DNA of 39,861 nucleotides from a virus, in IMG/VR virus record IMGVR_UViG_3300048583_000181, positions 1 to 39,861 of that record. One strand, 5' to 3'. A program made the translations under genes and the position numbers. The number at the start of each line of letters is the position of its first letter. Positions within the stretch are counted from its first letter, which is position 1. Below the pieces are notes generated by a model. The model saw nothing but the letters and a program-made list of their open reading frames with translations, made no database searches and was not told where the DNA came from. Positions 4,121 through 39,861 of this stretch are shown here, in pieces.

Positions 4121-4248
4121 CCAGCACGATTATTGTAAGATGGGTAGGGAAGGGGGGGTGGCAGAAATCCGGGGATAACGCCACCCCTATGCCACCCTAT
4201 CGCCACCCCCGGCCATATCACCCGATGATCGGGGGCAATCGGCATAGA

Positions 4249-4406: not shown

Positions 4407-4436
4407 AAAAAAAACCCCCGGCGCGATGGCCGGGGG
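4407..4436 (-). terminator. Rho-independent terminator of the small minus-strand cassette
   Basis: CCCCCGGC (4415..4422) pairs with GCCGGGGG (4429..4436). On the minus strand it is followed by a U8 run (A8 at 4407..4414), 30 nt after the stop at 4467. Confidence 0.75.
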
Positions 4437-4466
4437 CGATGACTGCCGGGGATGATCGGGGGCGGG

Positions 4467-4727
4467 TTACTGGTGGCGGACATCCCCCACGCCAATCGGG
4501 GGCGATAGCGGCGCGGGGTTGTGGATGGCCAGCCATGCTGTGCAATCGGCGATCATCGCCGCGTAGTCGCGGCGCGGGGGGTTGTCAGTCCATTGCGCGA
4601 CACGGACGGTTAGATCGGATTTCCGCAATCCACGAATTTTCATTCCGGCGGACATAATGCGGCATTGGCCGCGTAGCTGTGCGACGCGGAAAATATCGAT
4701 ATTTTCGGGGGCGATTAGGCTGGGCAT
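4467..4727 (-). CDS. Hypothetical protein (86 aa)
   Basis: ORF with the conserved TAGGGAGTCCGCC leader directly before the ATG, and a strong terminator downstream. Confidence 0.6.
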   Translation of the reverse strand: MPSLIAPENIDIFRVAQLRGQCRIMSAGMKIRGLRKSDLTVRVAQWTDNPPRRDYAAMIADCTAWLAIHNPAPLSPPIGVGDVRHQ

Positions 4728-5750: not shown

Positions 5751-6034
5751 GATAGTGACTCCCTACATATCGCCCCATTAGTGGCCGGGATTGGCGGGGG
5801 CGATGGCCCCTAGTGTCATGGCCAGCCGATAGTGTCAATATACCCCCGGCAATATATTTTCATATACCCTAGGCCAATCGCCCGCCCGCCCCCCGTGTGA
5901 CCGATGACGGCGACTGGGCATTGGGGGCGGCATGGCATATTGACAACGCGTGACACGCGCACGCGCGCGTGTAGCAAAAACCGTGCCAACCGACGACCGG
6001 CTGACGATTGATTGCCGATTGTTAATGTCGATAT

Positions 6035-6050
6035 CCGGTTGCACTAATCC
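6035..6050. repeat. Third, inverted copy of the GGATTAGTGCAAC core; it overlaps the early promoter -35 box
   Basis: The reverse complement of CCGGTTGCACTAATCC is GGATTAGTGCAACCGG, which matches the core of the 3946 and 4014 repeats. Confidence 0.85.
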
Positions 6051-6067
6051 TAAATGGCCGATAGGAT
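6039..6067 (+). promoter_or_regulatory. Predicted early promoter: TTGCAC-N17-TAGGAT
   Basis: TTGCAC at 6039..6044, spacer exactly 17 nt, TAGGAT at 6062..6067. It lies about 45 nt upstream of the first plus-strand ORF, in the divergent intergenic region. Confidence 0.5.
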
Positions 6068-6114
6068 GGCCAATCGCCGGGGATGATCGCGGCGATAATT
6101 TGGGGACTTAACCG

Positions 6115-6294
6115 ATGAAAATCTATAAGTGGTATTTCGGGGCTTCTGAAGGCATTTGCCGATCAACCGAAGCCGCAATGAAAGAAAAATCAATGCAATA
6201 CGCCCGCTCCTGCCTGGCAAAAGGTATCCCACTTTCGGAAATTAAGGCTTGTTATACCCCCGTGCAAATGCGCCAACCTCCAGTATCGATGTAA
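6115..6294 (+). CDS. Hypothetical early protein (59 aa); its TAA stop abuts hammerhead 1
   Basis: Manual translation: MKIYKWYFGASEGICRSTEAAMKEKSMQYARSCLAKGIPLSEIKACYTPVQMRQPPVSM. GGGGA lies 9 nt upstream. It falls below the 60-aa cutoff of the ORF track. Confidence 0.55.
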   Translation: MKIYKWYFGASEGICRSTEAAMKEKSMQYARSCLAKGIPLSEIKACYTPVQMRQPPVSM

Positions 6295-6346
6295 GGACGA
6301 AACCCGCTTCAGCGGGTCATCCGGTAACGCCGGGTCTGATGAGTCC
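6295..6346 (+). ncRNA. Type II hammerhead self-cleaving ribozyme (HHR1)
   Basis: Stem II is open: GGAC 6295..6298 pairs with GUCC 6343..6346. GAAA core at 6299..6302. Stem III: CCGC/GCGG with loop UUCA, plus the C6303-G6316 and A6302-U6317 pairs. The cleavage triplet is GUC, ending at 6318. Stem I is 6 bp (6319..6324 with 6330..6335) with loop UAACG. CUGAUGA at 6336..6342. A G10.1-C11.1 pair is present. Confidence 0.9.
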
Positions 6347-6692
6347 ATCAGTTACTGCTATTAGGGAGCCGATCACGCCAACCCCGCACAACCAGCGTAA
6401 AACCCCCGGCACACAGGGGGTAAAACTCAACGCCGATGAAGAAGATGCTATTCGCCTAATCTGCCCAGCGGTCTATCGTCAATTTGTCTTATACGACTCA
6501 CCATCAAAAGTCGCCCTGCAGTCAAAAGCGCTCGAAATAACCGAAGCCCGGCTGGTCGAATTGATCGAACGGCACAAGGAAAAACAAGCCCGCCACACGA
6601 CCCAGCTCTACGGCCCCAATCACCCGCAGTCTTGGGAAAACCTCTATTCCCCCGCAATCAAAATGCTGCGGGAAATGGGGATTGCGAAGTAA
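6339..6692 (+). CDS. Hypothetical early protein; start codon uncertain
   Basis: The frame is open from 6249, but the 5' part overlaps HHR1. The first in-frame ATG (6339) is the AUG of the CUGAUGA core. A TAGGGAG word (6362..6368) is followed by in-frame ATC and ACG but no ATG. The TAA stop (6690..6692) abuts HHR2. Confidence 0.55.
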   Translation: MSPSVTAIREPITPTPHNQRKTPGTQGVKLNADEEDAIRLICPAVYRQFVLYDSPSKVALQSKALEITEARLVELIERHKEKQARHTTQLYGPNHPQSWENLYSPAIKMLREMGIAK

Positions 6693-6750
6693 GGACGAAA
6701 CGGGCAGCGGTATTGCCCGTCCAGTGGTATTTTCCACTGCTGATGAGTCC
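6693..6750 (+). ncRNA. Type II hammerhead self-cleaving ribozyme (HHR2)
   Basis: GGAC 6693..6696 pairs with GUCC 6747..6750. GAAAC at 6697..6701. Stem III: GGGCA/UGCCC with loop GCGGUAU. The GUC triplet ends at 6721. Stem I: CAGUGG/CCACUG with loop UAUUUU. CUGAUGA at 6740..6746. Confidence 0.92.
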
Positions 6751-6770
6751 AAACACAGGGAGATAGCACA

Positions 6771-6968
6771 ATGACCACCTTTCGCGCAGTTCTGATAAAG
6801 ACAGAAAACAATACGGGCAAGACAACCGGCGAAGTCGTCACGTCGGTTCTCAAGACCGTCGGGCCATGGCAACAGACTTTGATCGGCGCGATCGAAGCTT
6901 GCAAGGCAACGTGGAAACGGGATTTTCCGCAGACCAACTACCGCGAAGCCCAGGATTTTTTCTGGTAG
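6771..6968 (+). CDS. Hypothetical early protein (65 aa)
   Basis: ORF track entry. GGGAG lies 9 nt upstream of the ATG. The ORF sits between HHR2 and HHR3. Confidence 0.7.
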   Translation: MTTFRAVLIKTENNTGKTTGEVVTSVLKTVGPWQQTLIGAIEACKATWKRDFPQTNYREAQDFFW

Positions 6969-7007
6969 TCCAGCGATGATCTTACCCAAAGCCACCACGT
7001 TCAATAA

Positions 7008-7059
7008 AAGCGAAACCGGCGTCAGCCGGTCGGTCGGTATCGCCGGCCCTGATGAGCTT
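7008..7059 (+). ncRNA. Type II hammerhead self-cleaving ribozyme (HHR3)
   Basis: AAGC 7008..7011 pairs with GCUU 7056..7059. GAAAC at 7012..7016. Stem III: CGGC/GCCG with loop GUCA. The GUC triplet ends at 7031. Stem I is 6 bp (7032..7037 with 7043..7048, including one G-U pair) with loop UAUCG. CUGAUGA at 7049..7055. Confidence 0.88.
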
Positions 7060-7090
7060 AATCGTCGGTTTTCCACCAGGAGTCAATTTA

Positions 7091-7318
7091 ATGGCTAAGA
7101 ATATCGCAAAGTCAAAAGGCAACACCGCCCGTCGCTCGGCGCAACGCAATAAAGGGCTGCCCGGCGGAGTCGTCAATCTTCACGGGAAGAACACCTTGCC
7201 CAGCCTCGAAAAGATGCTGGCCAATTCCACTTCTCTCTCCGACCTCGTTCGCAAACTTCGCCTTGCCCGGCGTTGGAAAGTCTTGCCAAAAGCAGCAACC
7301 GGGCGGGGGATGGAATAA
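7091..7318 (+). CDS. Hypothetical small basic protein (75 aa)
   Basis: I moved the start to the ATG at 7091 (MAKNIAKSKGNTARR), with AGGAG 7 nt upstream. The track start at 7052 is the AUG inside the HHR3 core. Confidence 0.75.
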   Translation: MAKNIAKSKGNTARRSAQRNKGLPGGVVNLHGKNTLPSLEKMLANSTSLSDLVRKLRLARRWKVLPKAATGRGME

Positions 7319-7521
7319 TGAAGACTTATTGGGGCGCCCGTATCCGCCGGGCTGATTCCAAATTCATTCGCCTTCTCCGCAGCCTGCCCGTCACATATCG
7401 CTATGTCTGGGCAGTTCGCATTGGCAATGACTGGACAACCTACTGCGTCATCGCCCGCCACAATCCATACTCCGCGCGCGGAAAGGCCCGGCAGTATGAT
7501 CTGACAAATCCGCTTGTTTGA
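7318..7521 (+). CDS. Hypothetical protein (67 aa)
   Basis: TAATG stop/start overlap with the previous gene. Begins MKTYWGARIRR. Confidence 0.7.
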   Translation: MKTYWGARIRRADSKFIRLLRSLPVTYRYVWAVRIGNDWTTYCVIARHNPYSARGKARQYDLTNPLV

Positions 7522-15662: not shown

Positions 15663-15989
15663 ATGAACATTTTTGAAGATATGGATGAAGCCGCTGTCTT
15701 AATCAGCACCCATTTTCCTGACGAGTCCGTTAGCATGGGCGTTGCCGCCAGCGTGTGCAGGGGCAAATACACCCCAGAGTGGCAAGCTTCGATGTATTGT
15801 GGCCGGACGAAATACACTTCGATCCGCGGCAGCGGCAACAGCTTCGTTGAAGCCGTGACCAATCTGATCGTCGCGCTGAAGGCGTATGAAGCCGCTTGCC
15901 TGATGCAGTCCGATGTCACGCATATCGAGCGCAATGTTTTGCAGATCGCTGCCCCGGCGGAGGCTGGTGAAAGCGATCTTCCGTTCTAA
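15663..15989 (+). CDS. Hypothetical protein (108 aa) ending in an SSB-like acidic tip ...ESDLPF
   Basis: ATG at 15663 (MNIFEDMDEAAV). The C-terminus is AAPAEAGESDLPF. Confidence 0.7.
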   Translation: MNIFEDMDEAAVLISTHFPDESVSMGVAASVCRGKYTPEWQASMYCGRTKYTSIRGSGNSFVEAVTNLIVALKAYEAACLMQSDVTHIERNVLQIAAPAEAGESDLPF

Positions 15990-17946: not shown

Positions 17947-19638
17947 ATGATTATGCCAGACGGCCTGCCCACCAGCCGTATCATGATCGTGCAAGAGTGC
18001 CCTGGAGAGCCAGAACACCAAATCGGTCGAGCTCTTCAGGGCCTCAATGGCATTGAATTTAACAAAATGCTTACCGAAGCTGGTATCATGCGGTCGGAGT
18101 GCTTTGCCACTTCTGTCATCCGCACGCGCATCTCAATGAACGATATCAACACCCAAATCTGCCACCGCAAGAAAGACGCCACCGATCGCCACTCCCCCTA
18201 TTTCGACAAGCTCGTAACTCAGGAGTTTCAAGATGGAGCATCCCTCCTCTTCAAAGAAATTGCTCTCGTCAAACCCGACGTTATTATTGCTTTGGGAAAT
18301 GGGGCATTGTTTGCGCTCACTGGAAAATGGGGAATTAAGCAGTGGCGAGGTAGCCAGCTTCCTTTCTCGACTGGAGACGGCGACAGCGCAGTATCGTGCA
18401 CTGTTATTCCCACCTACGACCCCGGCTGGATCAAGCGAATGTGGAGTGAGCGGTCAATCGCAGTGCAAGACCTCCGACGGGCAAAAGGGGTTAGGGACAC
18501 TGGATTTCATCAACCGCTGGATGGCGGACAGAGTAGAAGCCGAAAAGACCCCATTGTTGGGCGGGGATATAATTTCATTCTCCGGCCAAGCGTCGAAACC
18601 GTATTGTCTTGTCTGCAAGCGCTCCAACGAACTGTCGAGCTGTCTCCGACGCGATTGTCAGTGGATATTGAAACCCGCGCAGGGCACACCGCTTGCATTG
18701 GAATAGCTTGGTCGAAATCCGATGCAATCTGTATTCCGCTGATGTGTGTCGAGAGCCCGGCGGGCTATTGGCTGGAAGAAGAAGAAACCGCGATCAGCTT
18801 TGCGCTGTATAAACTCCTCACCCACCCAAATGCCGAAGTTATCGGACAGAATTTCGCCTACGATGCGCAGTATTTCTACCGCCATCTTCACTTCATCCCC
18901 AACCTCAAACGCTGCACGATGATCGCTCAGCATACGATGTTCTCCAACCTTCCTAAAGGTCTAGATTACCTGTCGAGCATGTATTGTGACGAGCACATTT
19001 ACTGGAAAGACGAGTCCAAAAACTGGGATCCAAAAGTCGGGGAAGATCAGCTTTGGGCGTATAACTGCAAAGACTGCGTGATCACTTACGAAGTCGATGA
19101 GAAACAGCAAAAGTCCATCGACGAACTTGGCTTGCGGAAAGTCCACGATTTCCAACAAGCTCTTTGGTGGCCAGTTCTTGAGACCATGAACCGCGGTATT
19201 CGGGTTGAGCAAGCTGGAAAAGCTCGCCTCGCCCAGGAGCTATTTGCTGCCATTCAAGAACGCGAAGCCTGGATTATCCGTGTCATCGGACGCCCACTGA
19301 ACCCAAAATCGCCAAAGCAAATGGCAGATTTTTTCTACCGGGAAATGGCGCAGCGACCAGTTATCAACCGCGCGACGGGCAGCCCAACTTGCAACGATGC
19401 TGCGCTGACAAAGATCGGGGAGCGGGAGCCGCTATTACTCCCTTTGATCAACGTCATATCCGAATTGCGAAGCCTCGGTGTTTTCCTGTCAACCTTTGTC
19501 CAAGCCCCACTCGACATCGACAGCCGGATGCGGTGCTCCTTCAACATCGCCGGGACAGTCACCTACCGCTTTTCGTCATCCAGCAACGCTTTTGACTCCG
19601 GCATGAATTTGCAGAATATCCCGAAGGGAGACGATTGA
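17947..19638 (+). CDS. DNA polymerase A family, part I: UDG-like N-terminal domain, 3'-5' exonuclease, and the N-terminal part of the polymerase
   Basis: UDG family-4-like QECPGEPE. Exo I is VDIETRA, Exo II is GQNFAYDAQY, Exo III is YNCKDCV. The ORF ends ...MNLQNIPKGDD*, immediately before where motif A is expected. Confidence 0.85.
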   Translation: MIMPDGLPTSRIMIVQECPGEPEHQIGRALQGLNGIEFNKMLTEAGIMRSECFATSVIRTRISMNDINTQICHRKKDATDRHSPYFDKLVTQEFQDGASLLFKEIALVKPDVIIALGNGALFALTGKWGIKQWRGSQLPFSTGDGDSAVSCTVIPTYDPGWIKRMWSERSIAVQDLRRAKGVRDTGFHQPLDGGQSRSRKDPIVGRGYNFILRPSVETVLSCLQALQRTVELSPTRLSVDIETRAGHTACIGIAWSKSDAICIPLMCVESPAGYWLEEEETAISFALYKLLTHPNAEVIGQNFAYDAQYFYRHLHFIPNLKRCTMIAQHTMFSNLPKGLDYLSSMYCDEHIYWKDESKNWDPKVGEDQLWAYNCKDCVITYEVDEKQQKSIDELGLRKVHDFQQALWWPVLETMNRGIRVEQAGKARLAQELFAAIQEREAWIIRVIGRPLNPKSPKQMADFFYREMAQRPVINRATGSPTCNDAALTKIGEREPLLLPLINVISELRSLGVFLSTFVQAPLDIDSRMRCSFNIAGTVTYRFSSSSNAFDSGMNLQNIPKGDD

Positions 19639-19639
19639 A

Positions 19640-20356
19640 ATGGATATGCCCAACATTCGCAAGCTATTCATTCCCGACCCCGGCTATTCTTTCTTCGACA
19701 TCGACCTTGACTCCGCCGATCTCCGTATCGTCGTCTGGGAGTCCGATTGCAAAGAAATGAAGGCCATGTTTGCAGAAGGGAAAAAGCCGTATGTCGAAGT
19801 CGCCAAAGAATACTACCGAGACCCCTCCATCGACAAGCATCACCCTTCCTATAAAATCTTTAAATCCCTCTGCCACGGAACTAACTACCTCGGCAAAGCC
19901 CGCGGCATCGCCCCGCGAGTTGGCCTTGTTGTCGCTGATGTCGAGCGTATCCAAAACTGGTATTTTGGTAAGTTCCCAGAAATCAAGCAATGGCAAGACA
20001 ATATCATCTCGTCCATCAATCGGCAAAAGTTTATCACAAACGTATTCGGTTATCGCATCAATGCTTTCGACCGGATTGACGACAATCTATATCGAGCCTT
20101 CGTCGCCTGGGTGCCGCAGTCCACGGTCGCTTGTCTTATCAACCGAGGTTATTACAACATCTATAAAAATCTCCGCGAAGTGCAGATCCTGCTCCAAGTC
20201 CATGACTCTCTGGCTGGGCAGTATGAAACGCATCTCGGAGATTGGGCCACTCGGAGAATTGTTGAAGAATGCTCGGTGCCGCTGCCATATGCCGAACCGC
20301 TGATTATTCCGGTCGGCATTTCCAGTAGTAATCTTAGTTGGGGAGATTGCAGGTGA
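19640..20356 (+). CDS. DNA polymerase A family, part II (motifs A, B and C)
   Basis: Begins MDMPNIRKLFIP... Motif A is FFDIDLDSADLRIV, motif B-like is YKIFKSLCHGTNYLG, and motif C is LLQVHDSL. It starts 1 nt after the part I stop, in a different frame. Confidence 0.85.
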   Translation: MDMPNIRKLFIPDPGYSFFDIDLDSADLRIVVWESDCKEMKAMFAEGKKPYVEVAKEYYRDPSIDKHHPSYKIFKSLCHGTNYLGKARGIAPRVGLVVADVERIQNWYFGKFPEIKQWQDNIISSINRQKFITNVFGYRINAFDRIDDNLYRAFVAWVPQSTVACLINRGYYNIYKNLREVQILLQVHDSLAGQYETHLGDWATRRIVEECSVPLPYAEPLIIPVGISSSNLSWGDCR

Positions 20357-38851: not shown

Positions 38852-39861
38852 CAGGCGGCGACCTTTTCCTTTGACCTGGCAGTGGCTGCGGCCATTTTCA
38901 AGCTGTGATTATGGGATGCAAATTGAGCTTTCTGCGCCATTTCCTGACCCTGCAAGACGATTTCCTGCTTACGGAGTTCAAGCTCCTGGCGTTTGATGTC
39001 GAATTCCAGTTGCATTTCCTGCATACGAATGTTGGCTTCGGCTTGGGCAAGTTGGAACTCCAGCCGCATCTTCTCAATTTCAGATTTCTGTTTCGCGGCT
39101 TCCCATTCCAATTTCTGTTTTTCCGATGCAACTTTTGCTTCCGCTGCCGGGTCAGCCTGGGGCTGCGGAGCCCGCATCTTCATCAGCTCATCTTCCAACT
39201 GGCTGCCAAAAGTGTATCGACGAGAGACGGCGAGCATCATCTGCTGCGCAACTTCAAACGGCAGCACCCCGCGCTCAATCAACGGAGCGACGCCGTTGAG
39301 GAATTGACTCAAGGAATTAAGCAACTCGGAAATGTCCCGCTTATCCTGCGTCGCTTCGACATCGACAGTCGAATTGGTTTCGATGTCCACGCGGTAACTG
39401 CGGGCAACTTCATTTTTCAGCAGGCCAAGAACCTCTTCCCAAGTCGGCTTACCCATCATTTCGATAATTTCCGGCGGGGGAGGGGGTGGCGGGGGAAGTT
39501 GCTGACCGGTTGCCGCGGCTTGCTGCGCAGCCATCTTCATCTGCTGAACCTGCGCCTGCACTTGCTGCTTTTCCGCCGCGGTCGGCAGTTGCAATCCGGT
39601 CATCTGCTTGATCGTTTCCGGCGAGAACTGCTGCACCGCGATCTCCAGCATGATACGGAGGGAGTCCCGGCAATACCGTTGAGCCTCCTTCTGCATCTTT
39701 TTCAGTCGGAGAGTCCCCCACTGGTTTTTGATGTTCTGCGCGGTCGCGGTTTCGCTGGCGACGGAGTTCCCGCGGAGAATGTCAGAGACGCCGGTGATTT
39801 CGTAGATGACCTGCTTGCACTGTTCGCGCTGGAGGTAGAGCGCCTGCACCACCTGCGCCAC
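38851..39861 (-). CDS. Portal protein, C-terminal part (continues from 1..1207)
   Basis: The frame runs off the window end, and its first residues duplicate the translation of bases 1..127. It contains a P8 run and a long Q/E/K/A-rich helical tail. Confidence 0.85.
   Translation of the reverse strand: MAQVVQALYLQREQCKQVIYEITGVSDILRGNSVASETATAQNIKNQWGTLRLKKMQKEAQRYCRDSLRIMLEIAVQQFSPETIKQMTGLQLPTAAEKQQVQAQVQQMKMAAQQAAATGQQLPPPPPPPPEIIEMMGKPTWEEVLGLLKNEVARSYRVDIETNSTVDVEATQDKRDISELLNSLSQFLNGVAPLIERGVLPFEVAQQMMLAVSRRYTFGSQLEDELMKMRAPQPQADPAAEAKVASEKQKLEWEAAKQKSEIEKMRLEFQLAQAEANIRMQEMQLEFDIKRQELELRKQEIVLQGQEMAQKAQFASHNHSLKMAAATARSKEKVAA
39735..39861. repeat. Right copy of the 127-bp exact terminal direct repeat (same as 1..127).
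   Basis: Read directly; identical to 1..127. Confidence 0.95.

Follow-up and report, generated by a model that had tools for sequence, protein, structure and literature searches.

The window analysed here is the whole 39,861-nt stretch of the IMG/VR virus record IMGVR_UViG_3300048583_000181, and it carries three putative type II hammerhead ribozymes (HH1, HH2 and HH3), placed between the first small orphan open reading frames (ORFs) at the head of a plus-strand operon of replication genes. The window ends share an exact direct overlap of 127 nt (positions 1-127 and 39735-39861), therefore the record represents a complete circular phage assembly of ~39.7 kb. From 6115 to ~22000, the plus strand encodes small ORFs and then a PD-(D/E)XK nuclease, AAA_24, a ParB-methylase, a UDG-exonuclease-PolA protein and DUF3987, while large structural-type ORFs and the terminase large subunit are located on the minus strand. 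The ribozyme region consists of the following features:

6115-6294, plus strand: ORF1, 59 aa, orphan; its TAA stop ends in the A that is conserved 5′ of HH1 stem II
6294-6347, plus strand: HH1, type II hammerhead (descriptor span 6295-6346), predicted cut after C6318; A6294, stem II 6295-6298/6343-6346 (GGAC/GUCC), GAAA 6299-6302, stem III hairpin 6302-6317, C17 = C6318, stem I hairpin 6319-6335, CUGAUGA 6336-6342
6339-6692, plus strand: ORF2, 117 aa from the core AUG 6339 or 105 aa from ACG 6375; its TAA abuts HH2
6363-6368, plus strand: Shine-Dalgarno sequence AGGGAG, followed after 6 nt by ACG 6375-6377, where ORF2 of the relatives has its ATG start
6692-6751, plus strand: HH2, type II hammerhead (descriptor span 6693-6750), predicted cut after C6721; stem II 6693-6696/6747-6750, GAAA 6697-6700, stem III 6700-6720, C17 = C6721, stem I 6722-6739, core 6740-6746
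6771-6968, plus strand: ORF3, 65 aa, orphan; TAG stop 6966-6968, the frame staying open for 12 further codons to TAA 7005-7007
7007-7060, plus strand: HH3, type II hammerhead (descriptor span 7008-7059), predicted cut after C7031; stem II 7008-7011/7056-7059 (AAGC/GCUU), GAAA 7012-7015, stem III 7015-7030, C17 = C7031, stem I 7032-7048, core 7049-7055
7092-7318, plus strand: ORF4, 75 aa, orphan, first gene 3′ of HH3; Shine-Dalgarno sequence GGAG 7079-7082

Both strands of the whole window were searched with a strict type II descriptor, which requires, from 5′ to 3′, one strand of stem II, GAAA, a stem III hairpin with A15.1-U16.1 as its closing pair, H17, a stem I hairpin, CUGANGA and the other strand of stem II. 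Exactly three matches were found, all on the plus strand and within 770 nt. CUGAUGA, GAAA and GUC are intact in each of them (zero core deviations), and the pairs closing the core are standard in all three (G-C, A-U and A-U/C-G/G-C). The helices comprise 4 bp (stem II), 6-8 bp (stem III) and 6-7 bp (stem I); stems I and III are capped by loops and stem II is open, which is the permuted type II topology. The motifs are spaced by 403 nt and 310 nt, each lying between consecutive plus-strand ORFs. Across 300 dinucleotide-preserving shuffles of the whole window, again on both strands, there was one descriptor match in total, thus three matches on one strand within 770 nt are far beyond chance. For the minimal sequences of HH1, HH2 and HH3, the minimum-energy fold is in each case the hammerhead three-way junction.

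No Rfam family matched at its gathering threshold anywhere in the window, and tRNAs or other Rfam families were not detected in it either. Using an E-value threshold, the Rfam model Hammerhead_II (RF02276) recovered HH3 with 32.9 bits and HH1 with 29.2 bits (E-values of 1.7e-4 and 1.6e-3 on 1.3 kb, and of 0.005 and 0.049 on the whole window), with HH2 remaining unlisted. The gathering cut-off of RF02276, 37 bits, is a curation threshold and represents no structural feature. We calibrated it on 10 phage loci with 36 descriptor-perfect type II hammerheads, of which at least 34 were missed, as only two matches reached the cut-off. It is therefore insensitive for the phage sub-class, and in view of this calibration the sub-threshold scores are not taken as evidence against the motifs. 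With nearly all members of the sub-class falling below the gathering threshold, annotation pipelines under-report it. A further covariance model, R1, was built from 110 diverse type II hammerheads on unrelated IMG/VR contigs, leaving out the window and its relatives. Run with filters off, R1 gave 65.5 bits for HH1 (E = 8e-17), 63.5 bits for HH2 (E = 3e-16) and 56.8 bits for HH3 (E = 3e-14), and the next-best score in the window was 11.9 bits. This weak match, at 15682-15729, was rejected because it lies inside an ORF and has no C-GAAA core.

Close phage relatives were found neither in INPHARED nor in IMG/VR; protein searches yielded three short metagenomic contigs as relatives, L131, L132 and L257. 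In L257, an ORF1 homologue is followed by an orthologue of HH1, which matches the window throughout the core, stem I pairs and stem II and differs by one base in loop I. Its stem III has been rebuilt but is intact (ACCCC-UCCG-GGGGU vs ACCCGC-UUCA-GCGGGU), next to an ORF1 that has diverged by 21%. L131 contains ORF2 and an orthologue of HH2 (R1, 64.6 bits) with four differences, two in loop III (6710 and 6712) and two that form one compensatory pair (U6725-A6736 to C-G); here, the ORF2 sequence beside the ribozyme is 11% diverged. Neither orthologue has a disruptive stem change. For HH3, no orthologue was found.

A preliminary description of this DNA, made from the letters alone, had proposed that three complete hammerheads of type II, in coding-strand orientation, separate successive ORFs and had placed their cuts after C6318, C6721 and C7031. 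The descriptor returned the same cut coordinates, and the motifs themselves are borne out by the descriptor and shuffles, the Rfam E-values, R1 and the compensatory changes in two orthologues. Non-compensatory stem changes in homologous phages, named beforehand as a finding that would speak against the proposal, occur neither in the HH1 orthologue of L257 nor in the HH2 orthologue of L131. Significant covariance-model matches, the absence of which had been named as another such finding, were obtained with RF02276 for HH1 and HH3 and with R1 for all three, although the RF02276 scores are below the Rfam gathering score. We conclude that HH1, HH2 and HH3 are probably genuine type II hammerheads which belong to the RNA of the rightward early/replication operon and would each cut after C17; self-cleavage at the predicted sites would follow from established hammerhead chemistry.

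To place the three motifs among phage hammerheads, we used the pattern GGACGAAAC...GUC...CUGAUGAGUCC, which matched at least 120 IMG/VR contigs, as did its CUGACGA version (likewise at least 120). Among the matches listed (L011-L130), the descriptor found 238 distinct type II hammerheads in the contigs of the first pattern. Members of this class nearly always occupy one strand per locus, with up to 12 on a strand of a locus analysed and a spacing whose median is 540 nt. Position -5, directly 5′ of stem II, is A in 99%, and position +5, directly after stem II, is A in 74%; the stem I module measures almost always 17-18 nt (17 in most) and has the loop I sequence UNANG. GGAC/GUCC forms stem II in 163 of the 238, a figure inflated by the way in which the set was collected. 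The segment lengths of HH1 and HH3 are the modal ones of the class (16 nt for stem III, 17 nt for stem I). Judged by five features, including the A at -5 and loop I UNANG, HH1 fits fully and HH3 in four of five, and HH2 has a 6-nt loop. Thus, HH1-HH3 are textbook members of the phage type II sub-class. In the published consensus, the stem I and stem II regions are in tertiary contact through a pseudoknot of at least 4 bp that joins loop I to the 3′ tail; in this sub-class, such a pseudoknot is not enriched over shuffles (mean longest helix 2.69 vs 2.62) and was not retained as the contact.

The position of the ribozymes relative to the stop codons is equally regular. The sequence GTAAGGACGAAAC, reported in the preliminary description, is indeed present at both 6291 and 6689, and the contact between TAA stop and ribozyme seen there in two cases holds for HH1 and HH2; the third case, TAA 7005-7007 at HH3, had been missed. 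In all three, the last A of the TAA (6294, 6692 and 7007) is at the same time the conserved 5′ A of the ribozyme, i.e., the stop codon overlaps the ribozyme. Each ribozyme fills the intergenic gap almost exactly, the next ribosome-binding site following 17-20 nt past stem II. This arrangement of ORF, stop and ribozyme, to which the preliminary description had drawn attention, is not unusual; it has precedents in published clusters and is common in the class: an ORF of at least 50 codons ends just upstream of 212 of the 238 hammerheads among the matches listed, and in ~62% of the 238 the distance from stop codon to stem II is at most 3 nt, distributed as follows:

Stop codon abutting stem II, as in the window: 49
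Last G of TAG common to stem II: 43
Stop codon 1 nt upstream of stem II: 10
Stop codon 2 nt upstream of stem II: 31
Stop codon 3 nt upstream of stem II: 14

The offsets are sharply peaked at hammerheads and flat at random positions, and in many cases it is the stop codon that provides the A conserved 5′ of stem II. On the other side of the ribozyme, the next start codon with a Shine-Dalgarno sequence follows at a median of 25 nt after stem II.

The flanked ORFs differ in how well they are supported. The ORF1 homologue in L257 (P0006) has 85% amino acid identity; 25 of the 37 nucleotide differences fall at codon position 3, which marks ORF1 as a real gene, and the codon changes are synonymous in 20 and non-synonymous in 9 cases. 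ORF2 has homologues with 64-73% identity (P0002 and P0003), and of the 13 differences in its C-terminal part, 8 affect third codon positions; a profile of ORF2 found nothing in metagenome and viral contigs. A start of ORF2 at ~6339, assumed in the preliminary description and identical with the gene call of the Joint Genome Institute (JGI), is doubtful. ATG 6339 is the AUG within the CUGAUGA core of HH1 and the sole in-frame ATG, adding 12 residues, whereas the conserved protein of the relatives starts, 6 nt past the same AGGGAG, at an ATG matching ACG 6375-6377 (L131, AGGGAGCCAATCATG; L132, AGGGAGCCGATTATG; window, AGGGAGCCGATCACG). Translation of ORF2 might begin at the core AUG, although this codon lacks a Shine-Dalgarno sequence and is paired in the alternative hairpin described below, it might start inefficiently at ACG 6375, or position 6376 might be an assembly or population variant. 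As a class-wide feature, the core AUG as start codon was rejected, because only 46 of 188 frames were open for at least 50 codons, about the chance rate. In ORF3, the TAG stop is followed by the in-frame TAA that abuts HH3 stem II in the same way as the TAAs do in HH1 and HH2. This could be due to a premature stop, to read-through or to chance, the latter estimated at roughly 0.2. Searched against 5.8 billion proteins, ORF3 matched only itself. ORF1-4 had no match in Pfam, PHROGs or the PDB sequences, hence a role in anti-defence or host takeover stays a guess.

Additionally, two of the three ribozymes can form an alternative hairpin that sequesters the core:

6336-6351, plus strand: HH1 alternative hairpin CUGAUG/CAUCAG (6336-6341 paired with 6346-6351), covering the HH1 core, AUG 6339 and the last stem II base
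7049-7068, plus strand: HH3 alternative hairpin CUGAUGA/UCGUCGG (7049-7055 paired with 7062-7068), 7 pairs including 2 G-U, 6-nt loop, covering the core

According to nearest-neighbour energies (ViennaRNA), the alternative hairpin is more stable than the hammerhead fold by 2.0 kcal/mol in HH1 with its flanks and is favoured by 5.4 kcal/mol in HH3 with its flanks. A helix of at least 7 pairs, as in HH3, occurs in 0.7% of shuffled tails. HH2 has no alternative core hairpin. In HH1, the tail 6347-6351 corresponds exactly to the form NUCAG; the HH3 hairpin is not of this canonical form, and the HH1 orthologue in L257 has no AUCAG tail. We analysed the tails of 367 unique class members among the matches listed (IMG/VR L011-L256). 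NUCAG follows stem II directly in 12.5% of them, compared with 0.22% per position elsewhere in the tails, and the sequences carrying it are diverse. The base N was then compared with core position 7, the sole variable core base:

U at core position 7 (U7): tail N is A in 28 members and G in 3
C at core position 7 (C7): tail N is A in 0 members and G in 15

The covariation is perfect (Fisher's exact p = 1.6e-9); where C7 members lack UCAG, their tail begins with A in 60% of cases. Enrichment and covariation together argue that this helix, which cannot coexist with the active core, is under selection. Such a hairpin may come into play ahead of cleavage, as a delay or as a switch that the terminating ribosome might set, or else once the cut is made, in the role of a lock.

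Based on these data we suggest the following mechanism. Each ribozyme would fold while the polycistronic RNA is being made and cut after C17 (6318, 6721 and 7031), giving pieces of ~245 nt (ORF1), 403 nt (ORF2) and 310 nt (ORF3) plus the remaining operon. By hammerhead chemistry, the cuts should leave a 2′,3′-cyclic phosphate and a 5′-OH. The upstream piece would end 24-29 nt past the stop codon in the stem III hairpin with its cyclic phosphate, and the downstream piece would begin with a 5′-OH, its first base taking part in the pairing of stem I from the outset. The products presumably separate, since nothing but the 4-bp stem II would join them. The CUGAUGA box released in HH1 and HH3 could then pair with the 3′ tail as a second 5′ hairpin, which would make cleavage irreversible. 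From what is generally known of mRNA decay, 24-29 nt past the stop should leave room for termination, the terminal hairpin should hinder 3′ exonucleases, and a 5′-OH end with a paired base should disfavour 5′-end-dependent attack by RNase E or RNase J. The likely net effect would be an mRNA of its own for each small early gene, stabilised and translated separately and shielded from the neighbouring genes.

The strongest rival of constitutive processing is that the ribozymes are conditional: a ribosome on the abutting stop codon would occupy the 5′ strand of stem II and the tail would capture CUGAUGA, so that cutting depends on translation of the upstream ORF. The abutment in all three ribozymes and the stop codons within 3 nt of stem II in the majority of the class fit this idea, and so do the NUCAG enrichment with its covariation, the exact NUCAG tail of HH1 and the 7-pair variant of HH3. 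However, 85-90% of the class members have no NUCAG tail, nor do HH2, which lacks the hairpin altogether, and the L257 orthologue of HH1. The abutment can also be explained by genome compaction combined with the ribozyme's need for a 5′ A, and the hairpin could equally act only after cleavage. We regard conditional cutting as rather unlikely. With similar reserve, we put forward the more general idea that phage type II hammerheads serve as translation-coupled, self-locking punctuation, the stop being fused to the 5′ A, the ribosome controlling stem II, and the NUCAG hairpin, in a sizeable subset that includes HH1, either holding the ribozyme off or locking it after the cut. If this were true, the hairpin would hold the ribozyme off until translation or turn the cut 3′ product into a doubly hairpinned, 5′-OH-capped leader. 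Bacterial and phage hammerheads, the role of which reviews still call open (PMC6765202, PMC6155905), would thereby be given a concrete and testable function.

The relatives show ribozymes that come and go with gene cassettes. Over the stretches compared (L131 1-1066, L132 1-505 and L257 1-560 vs window 6115-7320), the common ribozyme is HH2 only. In L131 and L132, an unrelated 73-aa ORF1′ runs directly into the ORF2 ribosome-binding site with no hammerhead between them. L132 and L257 originate from one European Nucleotide Archive (ENA) sample, in which the form with ORF1 and HH1 and the ribozyme-less ORF1′ form are thus both present. Furthermore, L131 has an unrelated 58-aa ORF3′ in place of ORF3, HH3 and ORF4, its similarity to the window dropping right after HH2. 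These swaps, together with the occurrence of the same ribozyme class in unrelated phages, could mean that hammerhead sequences persist mainly as junctions for the exchange of small gene cassettes and that cleavage is secondary. Yet the exact common words span just 9-11 nt, a poor substrate for homologous recombination, the perfect cores and the compensation within stems indicate that RNA structure, not DNA identity, is what selection acts on, and published examples cleave. A role mainly as junctions is improbable.

Even less probable, in our judgement, is the formation of RNA circles, in which the excised ORF2 RNA (6319-6721) would pair its 5′ GUCC from HH1 with its 3′ GGAC from HH2, thereby re-forming a nicked hammerhead at its own ends, and be ligated into a circular mRNA, either by the ribozyme or by host RtcB. 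The stem II strands of HH1 and HH2 are identical, and GGAC/GUCC is frequent in the class, with the inflation mentioned above. Ends with 5′-OH and 2′,3′-cyclic phosphate are substrates of RtcB. On the other hand, the stem II strands of HH2 and HH3 are incompatible (GUCC vs AAGC), so ORF3 would be excluded, and 4 bp make a weak closure for a loop of 400 nt. In such clusters, Perreault et al. looked for products that were circular or spliced, with a negative result (PMC3088659). That the motifs are chance matches or decayed, inactive relics is barely credible: despite the unreached Rfam threshold and the energetically competitive alternative folds, 300 shuffled windows gave one match against three real ones, the R1 E-values are ~1e-14 to 1e-16, the cores have no deviation, the orthologues are conserved with compensation, and the Rfam score misses other phage hammerheads that are just as perfect.

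Returning to cleavage of the early operon RNA by three genuine hammerheads as the preferred reading, several observations weigh against it. None of the three reaches the Rfam gathering score, and for HH2 Rfam gives no match of any kind. Cleavage could be partial or conditional, because the calculated energies favour the core hairpin in HH1 and HH3. The published pseudoknot between loop I and the tail comprises just 4 Watson-Crick pairs in HH1 (6325-6328 with 6351-6354), is weak in HH3 (4 pairs including one G-U) and is absent from HH2, where no convincing candidate was found. The effects on stability and translation are inferred. Finally, relatives retrieved with ORF7 (L001-L010) and more distant ones retrieved with the divergent gene p186 (L133-L149) have no hammerheads at the equivalent early position, as judged by the descriptor, Rfam and R1; the ribozymes are thus dispensable for the lineage. 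Elsewhere in its sequence, at a genomic position differing from that in the window, L133 (p186 homologue, 39% identity) has two hammerhead-like elements at 4166-4219 and 4430-4484 (R1, 52.9 and 44.0 bits), located 5′ of the p186 homologue and on its strand. One of them has a CUGGCGA core (A6 to G), a change that normally inactivates the ribozyme.

The start of the transcript can be placed with some plausibility upstream of ORF1:

6039-6067, plus strand: candidate early promoter, with -35 TTGCAC 6039-6044, a 17-nt spacer and -10 TAGGAT 6062-6067

It is unchanged in L131 and L257 and belongs to an upstream block, 6008-6110, that hardly varies among two to three relatives (GATTGATTGCCGATTGTTAA and CGGTTGCACTAATCCTA..CGATAGGATG) and is better conserved than the adjoining coding sequence. 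This is consistent with the block being the promoter or operator of the early operon. A simple sigma-70 scan did not call TTGCAC-17-TAGGAT, the hexamers being too weak. A search of metagenome, genome and viral collections with the conserved promoter 20-mer gave nothing except one chance match in a Sphingobacteriales metagenome-assembled genome, and no terminator-like sites were detected on the plus strand near the ribozymes. Further downstream in the operon, the family A DNA polymerase is seemingly split, with the UDG-exonuclease-PolA N-terminal ORF at 17947-19638 and a second ORF directly after it at 19640-20356.

Processing of early phage transcripts between genes is reportedly also achieved by RNase III, which according to Dunn and Studier acts on the early polycistronic mRNA of phage T7. 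The two systems work alike in that an early transcript is cut between genes and that hairpin ends affect stability and translation. In T7, however, a host protein cuts double-stranded RNA and leaves 5′-phosphate and 3′-OH ends, whereas the cut in the window is a predicted self-cut with 5′-OH and 2′,3′-cyclic phosphate ends; there is no homology between the two systems. Another parallel is provided by synthetic ribozyme insulators, for example RiboJ, said to have been introduced by Lou et al. in 2012. There, a hammerhead and then an extra hairpin stand 5′ of the ribosome-binding site, removing the upstream context and standardising the 5′ end of the mRNA. Unlike the ribozymes of the window, RiboJ is engineered, from a type III satellite-RNA hammerhead.

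Natural counterparts are closer. Type II hammerheads are common in bacteria, as was described by Perreault et al. in 2011, and clusters of hammerheads flank single genes in prophages, such as the triple around ardA in Agrobacterium tumefaciens and clusters in Azorhizobium caulinodans and Clostridium scindens; three tandem arrangements cleaved in vitro at all sites, the A. tumefaciens ardA triple also in E. coli (PMC3088659). Clustered hammerheads flanking single small phage genes have thus been published, and their cleavage was demonstrated both in vivo and in vitro (PMC3088659; PMC6155905). For De la Peña et al., the role of hammerheads was an open question tied to phages, and Weinberg et al. 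(2019) likewise left it open, mentioning different stabilities or translation efficiencies as a suggestion (PMC6765202). In Desulfovibrio vulgaris, three type II hammerheads near phage-like genes were found by cyPhyRNA-seq to be cleaved in vivo (Olzog et al. 2021; PMC8782182). As in the window, they lie near hypothetical and phage genes and two of them are ~310 nt apart on one strand; there, the ends were detected in vivo. They differ in being located on a bacterial chromosome, with no operon-start arrangement described (PMC8782182). Neither a stop codon abutting stem II as the norm nor a covarying core hairpin was found in the hammerhead papers cited here (PMC3088659, PMC6155905, PMC6765202, PMC8782182), although the latter may be described elsewhere.

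With regard to RF02276, HH1-HH3 have the same core, the permuted topology and the conserved A 5′ of stem II, with significant E-values for two of them. The sub-class of the window differs by scores below the cut-off, a 4-bp stem II of the GGAC/GUCC type, a 5-nt loop I UNANG and a consensus pseudoknot that is not enriched. The clusters of Perreault et al. resemble the window most: the hammerheads have gene orientation, are a few hundred nt apart and flank single small phage genes, one of the clusters being an exact triple, and the proposed role, conversion of a polycistronic RNA into gene-length mRNAs, is alike. The window stands apart from these clusters as a complete free metagenomic phage instead of a prophage, with type II hammerheads throughout, a position at the operon head, orphan genes in place of ardA and cleavage that is predicted only. 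The arrangement and its proposed role have been published ideas since 2011, to which this locus adds one clean example. Its value is that of a test bed, which combines a complete circular phage, three perfect ribozymes at the head of the early operon and two natural variants with the cassette present or absent. Together with the regularities of the class, i.e., the fused stop, the 17-nt stem I module, the start ~25 nt downstream and the covarying hairpin, this makes the vague idea of mRNA processing by phage hammerheads testable.

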